Counted from the first letter of the stretch, positions 2,952-62,889 are shown. The stretch: 64,000 bases of DNA from Thermoanaerobaculia bacterium (GCA_036009605.1 DASYLL010000458.1:8829-72828); one strand, 5' to 3'. Program-made: numbers and translations. Notes: a model not told the origin generated them from the sequence alone.

Positions 2952-3821
2952 ATTCCCGGCGATGAGCCCCCGCAGAACCGCCAGGTTTCGCTGATCAGAA
3001 ACGGTCTCAATCGTCTTCGGCGTCTCCAGCACTTTCGGGATGCGCGTGAAGCGCGCGTCGTTGAGCAGGAAGCGAAACGGTTCGAGTCCGAGCTCGCCCT
3101 GGCCGATGTGCTCGTGGCGATCGACGCGTGATCCGAGCGGCTTCTTCGAATCATTGAGATGAAACGCGCCCACGTTCTCGATGCCGACGTGTTGTTCGAT
3201 CTCATCGATCGCGCGCTCGTAGCCATCACGCGTGCGCAGGTCGTACCCGGCGGCGAAAACGTGGCAGGTGTCGACGCAGATGCCGAGGCGGCGCGGGTCG
3301 CTGACGCGGGCGATCATTTGTCCCAATTCTTCGAACGTGCAGCCGACGCAGGAGCCCTGTCCTGCCGATGTTTCGAGCAACGTGACGACGCGATGATTCG
3401 GAATCGCGGCGTGGATCGTGTCGAACGAGCGCGCGATCTGATCGATGGCCGCATTCGAGCCCAGGCCCATGTGCGCGCCGGGGTGCAGGACGACGGCGTG
3501 GATGCCGAGGCGCTCAGCGCGGTCGAGCTCGTCGATGAGCGCGGCGATGGACTTGCGGTGGAACTCCGGGTTCGTCGTCGCCAGATTGATGAGATACGAC
3601 GTGTGCGTGAGCAGCGGCTGCACGGTGCGCTTCGCGTTGAACGTCGCGCAGTCCTCATCCGTCAGCTCTTTGCCCTTCCACTGGTTCCCGTTCTTCGCGA
3701 ACAACGCCGCCGCGGACGCATCGATCGCGGCGGCGCGATCGAAGATCGTCGAGAGGCCGCCCTGGGTCGAGATGTGTGCGCCAAGGAGGTCACCGGGTGC
3801 ATCGGGGAAGGCGAACCTCAT
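2859..3821 (-). CDS. nfo: Endonuclease IV (AP endonuclease, deoxyribonuclease IV)
   Basis: From [23 protein letters not shown]... with the conserved HxxYLINL, LHPGAH and HLNDSK metal-binding blocks of Nfo. The last ~30 codons ([14 protein letters not shown]...) are encoded by repeat B1, so the true C-terminus is uncertain. Confidence 0.8.
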
Positions 3822-4816: not shown

Positions 4817-5764
<948 letters not shown>

Positions 5765-8158: not shown

Positions 8159-8400
8159 CCGCCCGCCACAGGAGGAATGAACGCCAGCTCGTCCCCGTCG
8201 CGCAGCACCGCATCGGGCGTCGCGTAGCTTTCGTTGATGGCAATCATCGGCGGTTGCACGTAGTCCGCGAGCTTCGCATACGACCCGCGCAGCGTCTCCC
8301 AAACCTCGGCCGCGGTCGTGCCCTCAGCGAGCGCGAGCTCACGCTCATCGCTGCCGGCGATGTCGCGCAACACCGCGAAAAACAGGAGCCGCACCTTCAT
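8155..8400 (-). CDS. moaD: Molybdopterin synthase sulfur-carrier subunit
   Basis: 81 aa from MKVRLLFFAVLRD..., ending in the diagnostic C-terminal Gly-Gly (PPVAGG). Confidence 0.75.
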   Translation of the reverse strand: MKVRLLFFAVLRDIAGSDERELALAEGTTAAEVWETLRGSYAKLADYVQPPMIAINESYATPDAVLRDGDELAFIPPVAGG

Positions 8401-8432
8401 CGACCGCATTCTATCGGTAGAATTCGCGCTGC

Positions 8433-8630
8433 ATGTTCGAGAGCGGAACCATCGTCGCGGATGCCCTGGCAATGCATCCCAAGGCCCGCTGGGTCTTCGC
8501 CGCCTACCACCTCGGCGGTTGCAATCAGTGCAACCTCGCGCAGGAGGAGACGCTGGAGCAGGTGGCCGCCGGGTATCGGATCTCGCTGGAGAGCCTGCTG
8601 GCGGATCTGAACGCGCTGGACCCGTCCTGA
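8433..8630 (+). CDS. DUF1858 (hybrid-cluster-protein-associated redox disulfide) domain protein
   Basis: 65 aa with the HLGGCNQCNLAQEETLEQVAAGYRISLESLLADLN pattern typical of DUF1858. Confidence 0.55.
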   Translation: MFESGTIVADALAMHPKARWVFAAYHLGGCNQCNLAQEETLEQVAAGYRISLESLLADLNALDPS

Positions 8631-9091
8631 CGCTCCCCTAAAACTCCGCGCGGCAGAGAGCGAGCGACGGCAGAAAACGCCAGCTTTCTCATCATGACGG
8701 CGGTCAGAATTGCAACCGCAAAGCCGGATGTGGAAAAAGTTTCCTCGAAAAAAAGCGGGTCCGCTCATGCGCTTTTTTTCACAAGCGAGATCCCTATCTC
8801 GCTTGATGTCTGATACTTCGGCGGTTGCGCCTGCCACCGATCCATCGATTTCGGTGTTATTTCGAAGAGAAATCGAAAGTTGGCTTCGATTTAGCAGAAA
8901 GCCAGATCACGATGAAACGGGTTTCGACAGAAATAACGAAACCTCACTTGCGCGGGTCTCGCCTACCTCACCTGTGCACAGTGGCTGCTGCGGGCTCCCT
9001 CCTTGACTATTGGACCGATTTTGGACGATTACTCACTAAGCTTCTTTGAACCTACCAACATGGCCGCAGCGGTCCTAGCGATGTACCACAA

Positions 9092-9122
9092 CGGAGCCGA
9101 AAGGCTCCGTTAGTGCTTTTAT
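9092..9122 (+). terminator. Intrinsic terminator-like hairpin (CGGAGCC-GAAA-GGCTCCG followed by a T-rich tract)
   Basis: Perfect 7 bp GC stem with a GAAA tetraloop followed by TTAGTGCTTTTAT. It closes the 8640-9120 lower-GC non-coding region. Confidence 0.45.
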
Positions 9123-9140
9123 GCGGCACCTGCGGTGTCG

Positions 9141-9207
9141 CGTTGTCAGTTCTCGGTTGTCGGTTGTCTGTGACGCAGCGCGAAGAGCCGCGGACAACCG
9201 ACAACTG
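9141..9207. repeat. Palindromic repeat family A copy 2 (right arm truncated)
   Basis: TTGTCAGTTCTCGGTTGTCGGTTGTCTG ... CGGACAACCGACAACTG, lying 40 bp upstream of the polA start. Confidence 0.7.
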
Positions 9208-9245
9208 CGGGCACGCGACAAGCGCGCAAATATAATCGCCCCCAG

Positions 9246-11927
9246 ATGCCCGCAAAGAAGCGCCCCTCCCTGTTCATCATCGACGGCTCGAACAACGTCT
9301 ACCGCTCCTACTACGCGATCCGCAATCTGACGAACTCGGACGGCATGGCCACGAACGCGGTCTACGGCTTCGTCACCACGCTGCGCAAGCTGCTCAAGGA
9401 TCACGAGCCGGACTGCATCGCCGTCGCGTTCGATGAGGGAAAGGAAACCGCGCGCACCGCTCAGTTCGAGGACTACAAGAAAGATCGCAAGCCGATGCCG
9501 GACGATCTGGTCGTGCAGATCCCGCTCGTCTACGAAGTGCTCGAAGCCTTCCGCATCCCCGTGATCCGCTCCGTCGAATGGGAAGCAGACGACTTCATCG
9601 GATCGCTCGCCTGCAGCGCGCGCGACCGCGGCTACGACGTGGTCATCGCCACCAGCGACAAAGACTTCTTCCAGCTCGTCGGCAACGGCATCAAGCTCTA
9701 CCACACGGGTCGCGAGGTGCTGTACGACGAGAAGGGCGTCGAGGATGCGTTCGGCCTGCCGCCGGAGAAAGTCGTCGACGTGATGGCGATCTGGGGCGAC
9801 GCCATCGACAACATTCCCGGCGTCCCCGGCATCGGCGAGAAGGGCGCGAAGGGGCTGATCCAGCAGTTCGGATCGCTCGACGGCGTCTACGCAGGCCTCG
9901 ATCAGATCAAGAAGGCCGCGCAGCGGAAAACGCTCGAAGAGAACCGCGACAAGGCATACATGTCGCGCGATCTCGCGCAAATCAAATGCGATCTCGATCT
10001 CGAAACGGATTTCGAAGCACTGAAGCGCACGGAGCCCGATCGCGCGAAGCTGCACGAGATCTTCTCGAAGCTCGAGTTCGCGTCGCTGATGCAGGAGTTT
10101 CTGCCCGAGGCGCCGGCGGTGCCGAAGGACTACCGCGTTGCGGAATCCGCGGAGGACATCCGCGACTACACCACCGGCCACCACACCGCCGACAACGCCC
10201 CCATCGGAATCTGGCTCGAGCCCAAGACGATCGACGGCTTCGACGCACCGATGGCCGCATCGATCTCGGTCCGTCCCTCCGACTCGCTCCTCATTCCGCT
10301 CGTCTCCGATCTCGGCTCGTCATCCGAAATGACGGACGCACTGCGCGAGTTGCTCGCATCGCCGCGCGAGTTCGTCACGTATGACGCGAAAGCGCAATCG
10401 CGCCGTCTGCGTGCAGCCGGTCTGCCGGTGCCGTCGCAATGGACCGACGTCATGCTGATGTCGTACGTGATCAACCCCGGCCTGCCGAGTCACGCGCTCG
10501 GCAACATCGTGCGCGACCGTCTCAAGCAGGACGTGCAGGTGCGCAAAGACGTCGCGAAGACGGCCCCGCTCTTCGCCCTCGATCACGAAATCGGCAGCAC
10601 CGCCCTCGGCGCCTACCAGCAATACCTCGGCGAAAAATCGGACGTCACGATCGCGCTGCGCACGATGCTCGAGCCCGAGTTGCGGCGCGACGACGCGCTC
10701 GCCGACATCTACACGCGCATCGAGATGCCGCTCTTCCCGGTGCTGAGCAGCATGGAAGAACGCGGCATCCGCATCGATACCGCGCTGCTGCGCGTGATGT
10801 CGAAGTCGATGGGCGAGCAGCTCGCGGAGCTCGAGACGCGCATCTACGCGGAAGCCGGCACGGAGTTCAACATCAACTCGCCGATGCAGCTCGGGCACAT
10901 CCTGTTCGAGAAGCTCAACTATCCCGTCCTCAAAAAAACGAAGACGACGAAGAACTACTCGACCAACGTCGAAGTGCTCCAGGAGCTCGCGACGCACGGA
11001 TTCGCGGTGCCGCAGCTCATCCTCCAGCATCGCGAGCTGCACAAGCTCAAAGGCACGTATGTCGATGCGTTGCCGCAGCTCGTTGCTTCGGACGGACGCG
11101 TACACACAACGTTCAATCAGGCGGTCGCGGCGACCGGACGCCTCTCATCGTCCGATCCGAACCTGCAGAACATTCCGATCCGCACCCAGCTCGGACGCGA
11201 GATCCGCAAAGCGTTCGTTGCCGATGATGGATCGGTGCTGATCTCGGCCGACTACTCGCAAGTCGAGCTTCGCGTGCTCGCGCACATCTCCGGCGATGAG
11301 TCATTGATCGAGACCTTCGCGCGCGGCGACGACATTCATCGCGCGACCGCGTCGAAGATGTTCAGCATTCCGCCGGAGGAGCTGACGGCGGAGCAGCGGC
11401 GCGCGGCCAAGGTCATCAACTTCGGTGTGCTGTACGGGATGTCGTCGTTCCGTCTGGCGAATGAGCTCGACATCTCGACCGGGCAGGCGAAGGACTGGAT
11501 CGACGCGTACTTCTCGCGCTATCCGAAGATCCAGGAGTACCTCGATCGCACGCTCGTCGAAGCGCGCAACACCGGCAAAGTGACGACGCTGTTCGGCCGC
11601 GTGCGCTACATCCCCGAGATCCACAATCGCTCGTTCACCGTGCGCGGCAACGCCGAGCGCATGGCGACGAACGCGCCGATTCAGGGCACGGCCGCGGACA
11701 TTCTGAAGATGGCGATGATCGCGCTCGAGCGGAAGCTCAACGCGCATTCGTCCGGCGCGCGGATGTTGCTGACGGTGCACGATGAAATCGTGATCGAGGC
11801 GCCGGAGACGAGCGCGGCGGACGTGGCCGGGATTGTGAAAGACACGATGGAGAACGTCTTCCCGCTCGCGGTGCCGCTGGCTGTCGATGCGCACTACGGG
11901 CCGAGATGGTTCGACGCAAAAGAGTGA
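9246..11927 (+). CDS. polA: DNA polymerase I
   Basis: 893 aa with an N-terminal 5'-3' exonuclease domain and a Klenow-like polymerase domain carrying motif A DYSQVELRVLAHISGDE, motif B RRAAKVINFGVLYG and motif C VHDE. Confidence 0.95.
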   Translation: MPAKKRPSLFIIDGSNNVYRSYYAIRNLTNSDGMATNAVYGFVTTLRKLLKDHEPDCIAVAFDEGKETARTAQFEDYKKDRKPMPDDLVVQIPLVYEVLEAFRIPVIRSVEWEADDFIGSLACSARDRGYDVVIATSDKDFFQLVGNGIKLYHTGREVLYDEKGVEDAFGLPPEKVVDVMAIWGDAIDNIPGVPGIGEKGAKGLIQQFGSLDGVYAGLDQIKKAAQRKTLEENRDKAYMSRDLAQIKCDLDLETDFEALKRTEPDRAKLHEIFSKLEFASLMQEFLPEAPAVPKDYRVAESAEDIRDYTTGHHTADNAPIGIWLEPKTIDGFDAPMAASISVRPSDSLLIPLVSDLGSSSEMTDALRELLASPREFVTYDAKAQSRRLRAAGLPVPSQWTDVMLMSYVINPGLPSHALGNIVRDRLKQDVQVRKDVAKTAPLFALDHEIGSTALGAYQQYLGEKSDVTIALRTMLEPELRRDDALADIYTRIEMPLFPVLSSMEERGIRIDTALLRVMSKSMGEQLAELETRIYAEAGTEFNINSPMQLGHILFEKLNYPVLKKTKTTKNYSTNVEVLQELATHGFAVPQLILQHRELHKLKGTYVDALPQLVASDGRVHTTFNQAVAATGRLSSSDPNLQNIPIRTQLGREIRKAFVADDGSVLISADYSQVELRVLAHISGDESLIETFARGDDIHRATASKMFSIPPEELTAEQRRAAKVINFGVLYGMSSFRLANELDISTGQAKDWIDAYFSRYPKIQEYLDRTLVEARNTGKVTTLFGRVRYIPEIHNRSFTVRGNAERMATNAPIQGTAADILKMAMIALERKLNAHSSGARMLLTVHDEIVIEAPETSAADVAGIVKDTMENVFPLAVPLAVDAHYGPRWFDAKE

Positions 11928-31240: not shown

Positions 31241-31248
<8 letters not shown>
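29161..31248 (-). CDS. glyS: Glycine--tRNA ligase beta subunit
   Basis: 695 aa GlyS-like product that overlaps glyQ. Confidence 0.9.
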
Positions 31249-32137
<889 letters not shown>

Positions 32138-32154
32138 AGGCCGCGCATTCTAGA

Positions 32155-37792: not shown

Positions 37793-37863
37793 GTTGTCGG
37801 TTCTCGGTTGTCCGTGACGTTTCGCCCGGGCCGTGAATCACAGACAACCGACAACTGATAACC
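37791..37863. repeat. Palindromic repeat family A copy 3, filling the sufB-sufC intergenic region
   Basis: GAGTTGTCGGTTCTCGGTTGTCCG ... CAGACAACCGACAACTGATAACC. It starts at the sufB stop codon and ends at the sufC RBS. Confidence 0.75.
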
Positions 37864-53145: not shown

Positions 53146-53226
53146 CTTTGTCGGTTGTCAGTTTCGGTTGTATCGGCCGTGTCGCGAGAACCCACAGACA
53201 ACCGACAACCGACGCCTGACAACCGC
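53146..53226. repeat. Palindromic repeat family A copy 4
   Basis: CTTTGTCGGTTGTCAGTTTCGGTTGTA ... CAGACAACCGACAACCGACGCCTGACAACCG, in the divergent galU/BNR intergenic region. Confidence 0.7.
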
Positions 53227-59463: not shown

Positions 59464-61736
59464 TGCAGCGCCGTCACGATCTCGGTGAAGGCAGGCTCGC
59501 CGCGCAGAGAATCGAGCCGGGGATCGACGGGAAGAAACACCATCCAGGGCGAGCGGTCTTCGCGCGCCGCCTGCAGCTGTTCGATCGCGGCGCGCGCATC
59601 GCCGAGTCCCGCGTGGATGACCGCGATGTCGTACGGCGAGACGTAGCGCGTGCGCGCCGTCGCGAGCAGTTCGGTGAGCAGCTCGCGCGAACGCTGCTCG
59701 TCGCCTGCGATCGCATATGTGTGCGCGAGCATGGTCGTGAGAATGGGAATGCGATCGACTTCGAATGCACGCGCGAACACATCGATCGCTTCGGGGTAAC
59801 GATGCTGTTGCCCGAGAGCCATGCCGAGCCAGCCATGCGCGGGGATGAAGTTCTCGTCGAGCTCGAGCGCCTTGCGAAAACGGCGGATCGCCGATTCGAA
59901 ATCGCGCGCGAAGTAAAACGGCCAGCCCGCGTGCACCGCGATGATCAGCGACAGCGGATCGAGATCCGCGGCCTTCGAGATCTGCTCGACTGCCTCGTCG
60001 AAACGTCCGCGTGCGGAGAGCAGCATCGCGTAGCCATCGTGCGCGTTCGCGTAGTTCGGATTGAGCTCGATCGCGCGGCGATAGGCTTCTTCCGCACCTT
60101 CCCAATCCCAGTCGAACCACCAGCGCACCGCGCCGAGGGATGCCCAGGCTTCGGCGAGACCGTCATCGATTTCGATCGCGCGCATCGCCGCGGCTTTTGC
60201 CTTCGGCATCGTGTCGTGCGGCGGCAGCGGGATGTTCGTAGCCATGGTGATGAAGCAGTCGGCCATGCCCGCGTACGCCATCGCGAACGAAGGATCGGAC
60301 TCGATCGCCTCGCGAAAAAACTGAACGCCGCGCCGCAGGCTCTCTTCTGTGCGCTTGTTCCAGTGATAGCGGCCCTTGAGATACAGCTGATACGCCTCGC
60401 TGTTCTCCGTCGTCTTTCTGCGGAGCTTCTTTTTCTCCGCGCCGGTGAGCTTCGGCCGCAGCTTGTCGGCGATCTCGCTCGACATCTCTTCCTGCAGCGT
60501 CAGCAGGTCGGCGAGCTGGCGGTTGTACGTCTCGCCCCACAGTTGCGCGCCATCGAGCGAGTCCACCAGCTCGACGCTGATCTGCAGCCTCTCACCGACA
60601 TTCTTCACGACACCGGTGAGAACCGCGCGTACGCGCAGCTCGCGGCCGACGCCTTGCGGATCGACGTCGCGGCCTTTGTAGCGGAACACCGTGCTGCGCG
60701 CCATGACCTTCAGCTTCGGCAACTGCGAGAGCTTGTTGATGATGCCTTCGGTGATGCCGTCGCTGAGGTACTCGGTGTTCGGATCGTTCGAATGATTGAC
60801 GAGTGGCAGCACCGCGATCGAGTCGATCGCTTTCGACGTGCGCCGTTTCGTGATCGTGCGGATCAGACTGTCGCTCACCATCGTCGCGCTGCTGCCGATG
60901 GAGCGCAGCGTGAGCGCGAGATCGCGCGCGGATTGAAAACGGGTCGACGGACTCTTCTCGACGCAGCCTTCGATGATGCGCTGAAACTCGGACGGCACGA
61001 CCGCCCCGAGCATGTCGCGCGGGAGATCGTCTTTGAGGATTGCCGCGATCGTCGCCGCGCCCGACTCGCGATGGAACGGCTTCTTCAGCGTCACCATCTC
61101 GAAGAGGATGCAGCCGAGGGAGAAGAGATCGGCGCTCGGATCGACGGCTTCGCCACGGAGCTGCTCGGGCGACATATAGCCGAGCGTGCCGATCACCGTG
61201 CCGGGCTGCGTCTGGAACCACTTCGTCGTCGGGATGTTGCCTTCGTCGCGATCGGAAAGAACGGGATCCGTTTGCGCGAGACCGAAGTCGAGAATCTTCA
61301 CGCGCCCCGTTTCGGTGAGGAAGATGTTCTCCGGCTTGAGATCGCGATGCACGATCGATTTCGCATGGGCCGCCGCGAGTCCTTCCGCGACTTCCGCGCC
61401 GATCTCCACGGCGCGTCGCCAGTTCATCGGCGCCTGCAGCGCATCGCGCAGAGTCTTGCCTTCGAGCAGCTCGGTGACGAGATAGAACGTCGAGTCCTCG
61501 CGTCCGACGTCATACACGGCGACGATGTTCGGATGCGAAAGCGCCGCGATTGCTCGCGCTTCGCGCTCGAGTCGGCCCGTGGCCTCCGCGTCCTGCAATG
61601 CGTCCTTCGCGAGAACCTTGATGGCGATGTCGCGCCCGAGGCGCGGATCGCGTCCGCGGTAGACCTGTCCCATTCCTCCTTCGCCGAGGAGAGAGAGGAC
61701 TTCGTAAGGACCGACTTTGGACCCGGCCGCGAACAT
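59460..61736 (-). CDS. Ser/Thr protein kinase with C-terminal TPR-repeat region
   Basis: Kinase motifs GEGGMGQVY, AIKVL, HRDLKPEN, DFG and GTLGYMSPE, followed by about 450 aa of TPR-like helical repeats; 758 aa. Confidence 0.85.
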   Translation of the reverse strand: MFAAGSKVGPYEVLSLLGEGGMGQVYRGRDPRLGRDIAIKVLAKDALQDAEATGRLEREARAIAALSHPNIVAVYDVGREDSTFYLVTELLEGKTLRDALQAPMNWRRAVEIGAEVAEGLAAAHAKSIVHRDLKPENIFLTETGRVKILDFGLAQTDPVLSDRDEGNIPTTKWFQTQPGTVIGTLGYMSPEQLRGEAVDPSADLFSLGCILFEMVTLKKPFHRESGAATIAAILKDDLPRDMLGAVVPSEFQRIIEGCVEKSPSTRFQSARDLALTLRSIGSSATMVSDSLIRTITKRRTSKAIDSIAVLPLVNHSNDPNTEYLSDGITEGIINKLSQLPKLKVMARSTVFRYKGRDVDPQGVGRELRVRAVLTGVVKNVGERLQISVELVDSLDGAQLWGETYNRQLADLLTLQEEMSSEIADKLRPKLTGAEKKKLRRKTTENSEAYQLYLKGRYHWNKRTEESLRRGVQFFREAIESDPSFAMAYAGMADCFITMATNIPLPPHDTMPKAKAAAMRAIEIDDGLAEAWASLGAVRWWFDWDWEGAEEAYRRAIELNPNYANAHDGYAMLLSARGRFDEAVEQISKAADLDPLSLIIAVHAGWPFYFARDFESAIRRFRKALELDENFIPAHGWLGMALGQQHRYPEAIDVFARAFEVDRIPILTTMLAHTYAIAGDEQRSRELLTELLATARTRYVSPYDIAVIHAGLGDARAAIEQLQAAREDRSPWMVFLPVDPRLDSLRGEPAFTEIVTALH

Positions 61737-62800: not shown

Positions 62801-62889
62801 CGTTGTCAGTTGTTGGTTCTCGGTTGTCTGCGACCTGGCCTGGCTTCGCAGTGACTCTTCAGACAACCGACAACCGAGAACTGACAACG
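62801..62889. repeat. Palindromic repeat family A copy 5 (most complete copy)
   Basis: CGTTGTCAGTTGTTGGTTCTCGGTTGTCTG ... CAGACAACCGACAACCGAGAACTGACAACG, starting 10 bp after the mglA-like stop. Confidence 0.75.

Follow-up and report, generated by a model that had tools for sequence, protein, structure and literature searches.

A conserved structured RNA gene with a predicted sigma-54 promoter and an open 5' reading frame, located upstream of polA in Thermoanaerobaculia

The intergenic stretch at positions 8631-9245 of a 64,000-nucleotide DNA segment from a Thermoanaerobaculia bacterium (GCA_036009605.1, DASYLL010000458.1:8829-72828; this 64-kb segment, at its full length, is referred to below as the window) is bounded by an open reading frame (ORF) for a DUF1858 protein (8433-8630) and by polA (9246-11927). 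It is made up of two parts, viz. control DNA (8700-8896) and an RNA gene on the plus strand (about 8907-9120; ~214 nt). The RNA is conserved, its fold is supported by covariation, and it possesses a promoter motif and a terminator of its own. The reading that we regard as probable is that the structured RNA has a gene in its own right, is driven by sigma-54, acts in trans and is translated in its 5' part, and that it is not a leader of polA. The RNA constitutes a new family within a kind of regulatory RNA that is already known, and its odd feature is an open frame that lacks peptide conservation and runs into an invariant motif. The preliminary description of this locus, made from the sequence of the window, had taken a low-GC, non-coding region of about 480 bp upstream of polA, ending at an intrinsic terminator, as a candidate small RNA (sRNA). 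The low-GC gap is indeed seen, with a GC content of 0.485-0.56 over 8600-9100 compared with ~0.61-0.66 in the flanks, and the proposal of an sRNA ending at the terminator stands. However, the length proposed for this RNA does not hold, as the upstream 200 bp of the region appear to be divergent sigma-54 control DNA instead of a part of the RNA.

Distribution, fold and terminator of the RNA

With polA used as an anchor, 80 loci from species-level genomes were compared, all of them Thermoanaerobaculia or Acidobacteriota metagenome-assembled genomes in which polA is 61-89% identical to that of the window. A homolog of window positions 8660-9125 was detected by nhmmer in 51 of the 80 loci, directly upstream of polA and on the same strand, and no RNA homolog was found near polA in the remaining 28-29 anchor loci. 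The 3' half of this region (8878-9121) is still recognisable where polA is only 61-68% identical. When metagenome contigs were scanned for the exact 19-mer TTGGACCGATTTTGGACGA, at least 120 stretches matched, and full homologs are present in at least 115 contigs, mostly from soil; five of the 120 matches listed are not members of the family, and four of these five look like chance or low-complexity matches. The metagenome loci also revealed a second conserved context, in which the RNA is preceded by the DUF1858 gene and followed by selD (selenophosphate synthetase), with a divergent gene for an elongation factor G-like protein further on. This arrangement is seen in L114, L146, L200, L162, L119, L134 and about 20 other metagenome loci, and both the promoter and the terminator of the RNA are kept in the polA and selD settings alike. 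The RNA gene is present in a single copy in the window, and each locus of a relative that carries it has a single copy in a constant position. Viral contigs gave no match to the RNA, and the family is so far confined to the Thermoanaerobaculia (Acidobacteriota), which are abundant and mostly uncultured soil Acidobacteriota. Literature searches on sigma-54 sRNAs in Acidobacteria and on non-coding RNAs in Thermoanaerobaculia returned nothing relevant, and regulatory RNA in this class was not described in what they covered. The occurrence of the element in these loci goes far past what chance would produce. The RNA family so defined has at least 160 members, and its structure can be put to the test.

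Sequence conservation starts at 8908 and stops at the terminator, and the RNA of the window has a minimum free energy fold of -69.2 kcal/mol (z = -2.85). Four helices, P1 to P4, were obtained with RNAalifold from a first structural alignment of 51 sequences. In helix P1 (8920-8926/8937-8943) changes on both sides are seen in 5 of the 7 pairs and 95.8% of the cells are paired, while for helix P2 (8950-8957/8970-8977) compensatory changes affect 4 of the 8 pairs, with G-C replaced by A-U in 14-15 sequences, and 99.3% of the cells are paired. Helix P3 is a long-range pairing (8983-8993/9064-9075, with U9073 bulged) in which 98.9% of the cells are paired; here C-G is replaced by U-A in 12 sequences and G-C by U-A in one. 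The fourth helix, P4, is the stem of the terminator, and it shows compensatory changes in 6 of the 7 pairs that were counted. For all helices taken together, 97.7% of the cells are standard pairs, and both partners have changed in 17 of the 34 pairs. This structure has a covariation score of 0.201 compared with 0.119 for shuffled alignments, none of 500 of which reached 0.201, and controls in which the pairing partners were slid gave scores of 0.03-0.08 with 29-43% of the cells paired. A larger alignment, of 147 unique sequences, places the pairs with the highest mutual information all within P2, P3 and P4, those of P2 ranking at the top, and mutual information in these sequences indicated no extra helix or pseudoknot, except for one possible pair at the base of the loop closed by P3. 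The conservation and covariation in relatives that the preliminary description had proposed as a check on its candidate were thereby found.

The intrinsic terminator P4 (plus strand) is formed by 9087-9098 and 9103-9115, capped by a GAAA tetraloop and followed by CUUUU up to 9120, the U-tract being taken as the 3' end of the RNA. Its core, AACGGAGCC-GAAA-GGCTCCGTT at 9090-9111 and then GTGCTTTTA, was picked up by the terminator scan, and the stem comprises 9 bp (9090-9098/9103-9111), or 12 bp when extended to 9087-9115. This stem covaries in the relatives (GGAGCC/GGCTCC being replaced by GGACCC/GGGTCC), and the terminator that had earlier been placed at the end of the region is confirmed. A scan against Rfam 15, the families of which include 6S, tmRNA, RNase P, SRP, riboswitches and Acido-1, had likewise been proposed earlier; it was carried out on the window and on two divergent homologs (L114 and L080) at E <= 5-10, and no match to a known family was obtained: L114 gave no hits and L080 gave chance hits only. 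The best hit, to isrK (20.9 bits, with the gathering score at 50; E = 0.061), falls on a palindrome at 8712-8779, which is outside of the RNA. ARAGORN found no tRNA and no tmRNA in the whole window.

The predicted promoter and the control region

In sigma-54 promoters, the GG and GC elements are exactly 10 nt apart and lie about 12 nt before the transcript start, and such promoters need an enhancer-binding activator, for which the activator sequence is located 80-200 bp upstream. The putative promoter of the RNA (plus strand) consists of a -24 element, TGGC (8881-8884), and a -12 element, GCA (8894-8896), which together give TGGC-N9-GCA with the GG-N10-GC spacing. This arrangement is invariant at a fixed distance from CACGATGAA, and from the conserved 5' sequence CACGAUGAA, in all 49 genome loci for which enough upstream sequence is available, and the 9-nt spacer between its two elements varies freely. 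Among the metagenome matches listed, GG-N10-GC is present at the expected offset in 109 of 111 homologs. In the selD context the promoter is nearer to the consensus (CTTGGCAGG-N4-GTGCA), and a conserved TTATTT is found just upstream of its -24 box. If the transcript start is placed 12 nt past the C of the -12 element (8895), then the RNA would begin at about 8907 and have a length of ~214 nt. A promoter scan of 8300-9500 gave no sigma-70-like promoter. The preliminary description had also pointed to an internal hairpin, GGCTTCGATTTAGCAGAAAGCC (8882-8903), and to a -35-like TTGACT, and neither of these has held up. The hairpin is present in the window and is not conserved as a hairpin in relatives, where it is TGGC-N9-GCA that is invariant, and TTGACT (9003-9008) falls inside the invariant loop of the RNA.

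The DNA further upstream becomes intelligible when it is compared with relatives in which a minus-strand gene for an outer-membrane protein (OMP) starts at this place (217-224 aa; PF13505, OMP_b-brl). In the window, this gene has been deleted (8525-8726) and a 56-codon frame running into the DUF1858 gene is all that is left of it; the first ~11 codons, starting at ATGATG (8695-8690, minus strand; MMRKLAFSAVA...), remain as the 5' end of the deleted beta-barrel gene, together with a degenerate -24 box and a -12 block that is intact. L010, L016, L020, L026, L030 and L045 have lost this gene too, and the -24 box is decayed every time. The -12 block, referred to here as block A (GGTCAGAATTGCAAC, 8702-8716, the element extending to 8726), holds on the minus strand the -12 TTGCA of a predicted divergent sigma-54 promoter, the -24 box of which is degenerate in the window (8723-8726 is GCCG where relatives have GCCA; on the minus strand, CGGC in place of TGGC). 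The complete minus-strand pattern TGGC-N7-TTGCA (TGCAA-N7-GCCA on the plus strand) is found in every locus that bears the OMP gene and in no locus that lacks it. In the relatives, this divergent promoter is a near-perfect match to the consensus and lies ~170 bp upstream of the RNA promoter, and the start predicted for it by the same +12 rule (about 8700 on the minus strand in the window) is 5 nt ahead of the OMP AUG.

Block A is retained in loci with and without the OMP gene alike, and in the selD-context clade, which never has the OMP gene, it forms with block B an inverted repeat, AAATTTGCAA-N13-15-TTGCAAATTT. Block B (8732-8744) is a conserved palindrome, GGAAA-AAG-TTTCC, whose half-sites change symmetrically (GGAAA/TTTCC to GGCAA/TTGCC) and which is 163-175 bp upstream of where the RNA is predicted to start; it is a putative upstream activating sequence for a dimeric enhancer-binding protein. 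Due to the retention of block A in the absence of the OMP gene and the inverted repeat in the selD context, block A is probably the left arm of an enhancer as well, and the sequence 8702-8744 is read as an enhancer common to both promoters. Blocks C and D (8773-8808) comprise a T-run with CACAAGCGAGAT and ATCTCGCTTGAT, including a 10-bp inverted repeat (8782-8791/8796-8805), and of these TTTTTCACAAG and CTTGAT show conservation throughout the loci of the polA context. These two blocks could represent a second activator site or a DNA-bending site, and they too are probably part of the putative shared enhancer. The palindromic blocks at 8702-8744 and 8773-8808 lie at the distance expected of activator sites (80-200 bp), the binding of an activator to them being putative. 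If the shared enhancer also drives the OMP gene, as predicted, then the locus may serve as a marker for a sigma-54/enhancer regulon. A further feature of this region is a perfect 11-bp palindrome at 8747-8780, GAAAAAAAGCG...CGCTTTTTTTC, which has an A7-hairpin-T7 layout like that of a bidirectional terminator. This isrK-like palindrome was set aside as a candidate element, as its stem is not conserved in the relatives, in which only the T-run and CACAAG are retained.

The invariant loop and the open frame leading into it

Helix P3 encloses a loop of 70 nt (8994-9063, plus strand), GCUCCCUCCUUGACUAUUGGACCGAUUUUGGACGAUUACUCACUAAGCUUCUUUGAACCUACCAACAUG, which is nearly invariant and apparently unpaired. 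It is near-invariant over more than 150 sequences, and in the 147 unique sequences most of its columns are at least 90-98% identical, with no covariation support for pairing inside it. The loop contains two CU-rich boxes that resemble an anti-Shine-Dalgarno sequence, CUCCCUCCUUGAC and CUUCUUUGAAC, and these flank a doubled UUGGAC(C)GAU motif, the core of which is the 27-nt sequence UUGGACCGAUUUUGGACGAUUANUCACU; a doubled YCCUUGA motif is also present. Even where the polA beside a homolog is no more than 61-68% identical to that of the window, the core has not changed. Sponges for CsrA of the CsrB/RsmZ type expose many GGA motifs in hairpin loops or linkers, and a comparison with this type showed only two exposed UUGGAC motifs in the loop, 11 nt apart. 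A loop of this length and invariance should be a direct route to the partner, whether protein or mRNA. Elsewhere in the window, at 61708-61722, the sequence GGACCGACTTTGGAC matches the loop core in 14 of 15 positions, which is at chance level (E ~2.5).

An AUG is located at +6 of the RNA, and the frame that it opens on the plus strand (8912-9049; 45 codons and a stop, translated as MKRVSTEITKPHLRGSRLPHLCTVAAAGSLLDYWTDFGRLLTKLL) is the 3' part of a longer ORF call at 8825-9049. The AUG is present in 143 of the 147 unique homologs, and the frame is of 40-45 codons, its main length classes differing by 3 or 6 nt. From the AUG up to P3 this frame is free of stops in 137 of 141 sequences, compared with 68-103 of 141 in the other five frames; the number of sequences with stops is thus 4 of 141 as against 38-73 of 141 in those five frames, where the stops fall into 12-22 independent position classes, and all four sequences with a stop in the AUG frame belong to one clade that has lost the AUG as well or has decayed. 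Stop codons are therefore depleted in the AUG frame, and the 5' two-thirds of the RNA are probably translated from this AUG. However, the peptide itself is not conserved. The entropy at the three codon positions is 0.76, 0.76 and 0.77, i.e. without periodicity, and the synonymous share of differing codons (0.15-0.22) is no higher than in the off-frames. The residues that appear conserved coincide with stem nucleotides, the changes from G to E and from CL to RS being the two sides of compensatory pair changes. The codons of the motif, GAU UUU GGA CGA UUA, are rare and AT-rich for a genome of 63% GC, and no drift is seen in them. Among the more divergent homologs, six read the motif as WTDFGR, four as GPILDD and one as LDRFWTI, and in two others the frame stops 2-3 nt before the motif; all of them retain the AUG at +6 and a frame open for at least 29 codons. 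A search with the peptide gave 11 uncharacterised proteins among 5.8 billion predicted ones, and no Pfam family, and gene callers hardly ever report this ORF. Based on these observations, selection would appear to keep the frame open and not to preserve the peptide. As the frame is kept open without conservation of the peptide, it is presumably the passage of ribosomes up to the loop that matters and not the product, and such passage could protect a C-rich unstructured stretch from Rho, control the folding of P3, or gate the motif. The earlier statement that the region holds no convincing ORF is therefore correct in that the peptide is not under detectable selection, but the ORF call that it dismissed includes a frame which, beginning with the AUG at 8912, stays open in most homologs.

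One of the matches to the 19-mer scan deserves separate mention. In L137, a low-GC metagenome contig (Ga0184615_10004190), the unit is at 3051-3260 on the minus strand, between argS and smpB, and the match extends past the 19-mer into TTA-N-TCACT, with 8 of 8 further specified bases agreeing. The 27-nt motif in this contig lies inside a 19-codon ORF preceded by GAGG-N5-AUG (MDGYMRRTLWTDFGRLVTA, followed by a stop), in the same reading frame as in the ORF of the RNA, and a CU-rich stretch and a strong terminator are found downstream. Upstream of it is a sigma-70-like promoter, TTGCCA-N17-TATATT, and not a sigma-54 promoter. A covariance model of P3 and the loop scored 24 bits against L137 (E ~0.004), with a doubtful assignment of the stem. 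L137 is thus related through the shared motif, as a possible distant relative of the family; it leaves room for the hypothesis of a peptide, or of a motif that must be translated.

In the mechanism that we propose, an enhancer-binding activator bound to the palindromic blocks 100-200 bp upstream would turn on the sigma-54 promoter of the RNA, and in most relatives the same enhancer would also serve the divergent sigma-54 promoter of the small OMP beta-barrel gene. Translation would start from the AUG at +6, behind a 5-nt leader of the same geometry as that of the divergent OMP gene, and transcription would stop at the strong intrinsic terminator, with polA restarting from its own -10 box. The two 5' hairpins and the 11-bp stem would display the 70-nt invariant loop, which is the presumed working part. 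Action in trans, which is the mode suggested for this RNA, might then take place either through the two CU-rich boxes, which would pair with ribosome-binding sites, or through the doubled UUGGAC motif, which would hold or titrate an RNA-binding protein.

Several observations weigh against this interpretation. The bare promoter pattern is not rare in a single sequence, as it occurs 8 times in the window where 7.8 occurrences are expected, and due to this it is the invariance and the register of the motif, and not its mere presence, that constitute the evidence for the promoter. Neither rpoN nor a gene for an enhancer-binding protein was found in the 64-kb window or in the fetched loci, and no ORF with the GAFTGA motif (AAA+ activator) was seen in the window or in 200 loci, so that the dependence on sigma-54 in vivo is suggested by the promoter motif by itself. 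The U-tract of the terminator is short (3-4 U), and both the 5' and the 3' end of the RNA are predictions. Complementarity to the RNA within the window is at chance level only, and for pairing with the divergent OMP mRNA in 33 loci the mean z was +0.46, i.e. there was no signal. Further, the frame enters the loop as WTDFGRL, ending in ...VAAAGSLLDYWTDFGRLLT and a stop, in 132 of the 147 sequences, which leaves room for a functional peptide, and in L137 the motif lies in the frame opened by GAGG-N5-AUG and is read in the same way, the stop coming three codons past GRL.

Two other readings of the RNA were also considered. According to the first of these, which we consider possible though doubtful, the RNA would be a translation-coupled riboregulator, in which the frame is kept only to bring the ribosome onto, or stop it at, the 27-nt motif UUGGACCGAUUUUGGACGAUUANUCACU. 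If this is the case, then the motif would be the functional unit, acting on or with the ribosome or unmasked by it, under control by sigma-54. In L137, from an unrelated low-GC bacterium, the motif is likewise inside a short translated frame, with a CU-rich stretch and a terminator after it.

The second reading, which we hold to be unlikely, is that this is a gene for a small protein of 40-45 aa ending in ...YWTDFGRL(L/I/F)T, and that the hairpins and the terminator do no more than lend stability to a short, almost leaderless mRNA. The conserved AUG and WTDFGRL frame, the length classes, the strong depletion of stops, the 5-nt leader geometry shared with the divergent OMP gene and the ORF in L137 are all in accordance with such a gene. 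However, a selected peptide would not be expected to lack codon-position periodicity and to show a synonymous share equal to that of the off-frames, nor to have its conserved residues coincide with RNA stems, in which the change from G to E is matched by compensation on the opposite strand of the helix. At its synonymous sites the motif does not change, its codons staying rare and AT-rich; it is read as GPILDD in at least nine sequences and as LDRFWTI in some, and two have a stop ahead of it, with the RNA intact in all of them. The RNA is likewise intact in the clade that lacks the AUG and has gained stops, and the few proteins matched by the peptide carry no Pfam family. The locus is a clean natural case of an open frame without peptide conservation, and it bears on how RNAs regarded as non-coding can coexist with default translation of transcripts with short leaders.

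Independence from polA, known systems and flanking sequences

Upstream of polA, TATAAT (9231-9236) stands 9 nt from the AUG, and in most loci a TAnAAT box is present 7-11 nt before the polA start, with or without the RNA upstream. Among the matches listed, 84 metagenome homologs have at least 400 nt of downstream sequence, and the downstream gene is polA in 54 of these and another gene, mostly selD, in the other 30. Since a -10 box belongs to polA itself and other genes follow 30 of the 84 homologs, the RNA is not a leader of polA and is independent of it, and the alternative in the preliminary description, viz. a cis-regulatory leader, has not been borne out. In a more general form of this alternative, the element would be a leader or attenuator that acts on polA, or on any other gene located downstream, with translation of the leader ORF or a ligand setting the read-through at 9087-9120. 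The element is always co-oriented with the downstream gene (polA, selD, or smpB in L137), its layout is that of an ORF followed by a terminator, and GGAGCC could be captured by GGCUCC of the loop in place of the terminator's 3' strand. However, these downstream genes are mutually unrelated, and polA keeps its conserved TAnAAT box whether the RNA is present or not. A palindrome resembling repetitive extragenic palindromic (REP) elements (9142-9205) and ~125 nt in all separate the RNA from polA in the window, this palindrome lying between the RNA terminator and the TATAAT box, and polA is ~1 kb away in two loci. The eight sequences with the terminator GGACCC/GGGUCC keep the antiterminator candidate GGCUCC unchanged, and the antiterminator model was rejected as this candidate does not covary with the terminator; Rfam riboswitches also gave no match. 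Such a cis-acting role is consequently very improbable. The notion that conservation is at the DNA level only, e.g. as a regulatory region or as what remains of a mobile element, with no functional RNA being produced, is hardly credible, for although the upstream 200 bp are indeed of this nature (promoters and enhancer) and REP-like repeats adjoin the region, compensatory changes keep four helices on one strand, including at positions tolerant of G-U, a strand-specific terminator is present, and the element occurs once per locus at a fixed position with no further copy in the window.

Among known systems, the Qrr RNAs of Vibrio (sigma-54 and LuxO) are stand-alone sRNAs with a -24/-12 promoter, TTGCA/TGCAA-type half-sites and an intrinsic terminator; they are ~100 nt long, depend on Hfq, have no ORF, and act in trans via a conserved single-stranded sequence. 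The RNA described here is also stand-alone, with a -24/-12 motif, TTGCA/TGCAA half-sites upstream and an intrinsic terminator, but it has no sequence or covariance-model similarity to Qrr, the order and spacing of the enhancer half-sites differ, and no LuxO-like gene is near it in the window or the fetched loci. Larger sigma-54-dependent sRNAs that sequester a protein via repeated motifs are exemplified by CrcZ/CrcY (with CbrB) and GlmY (with GlrR). The doubled UUGGAC(C)GAU and YCCUUGA motifs of the loop resemble this arrangement, although there are only two copies of each motif here, A-rich Hfq/Crc motifs are absent, and there is no Rfam match. In its proposed mode of action the RNA would be akin to the sigma-54-dependent sRNAs Qrr, GlmY and CrcZ, and it is a member of none of these families. 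In SgrS/SgrT, RNAIII/hld and SR1/SR1P, a structured RNA likewise includes a short frame that is apparently kept open by selection; however, their peptides are conserved and functional, whereas here the peptide is not and the frame of the motif varies by lineage. With regard to gene order, micF is divergent from ompC, and Spot 42 (spf) neighbours polA in E. coli, and the present locus shares with the former an sRNA gene divergent from an outer-membrane protein gene and with the latter an sRNA gene beside polA. However, spf is downstream of polA, is controlled by CRP and has no sequence relation to this RNA; micF is not sigma-54-dependent and is also unrelated in sequence, and here pairing between the RNA and the OMP mRNA was not detected.

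In regard to the surrounding genes, moaD and moaE, on the other strand, precede the DUF1858 ORF. The polA mRNA appears to be leaderless or nearly so, as TATAAT is 9 nt before the AUG and no Shine-Dalgarno sequence is present, and this layout is conserved across Thermoanaerobaculia loci. The same layout is seen at two other long ORFs of the window (4817-5764 and ~31243-32149, both on the minus strand); the -10 box abuts the start codon in 3 of its 47 long ORFs, and a Shine-Dalgarno-like sequence is found in only 15 of the 47.

The REP-like palindrome at 9142-9205 is one of several in the window, others being present at 1442-1520, 37793-37862, 53147-53216 and 62802-62888. These elements are composed of tandem 7-nt units, GTTGTCG/GTTCTCG, in inverted orientation, and the sequence GTTGTCGGTTGTC, with up to 2 mismatches, has 22 matches in the window compared with 1.9 expected. 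At the same intergenic spot, relatives have analogous palindromes made of other heptads, viz. CACTCAG, CGCTAAC and AACGACA.

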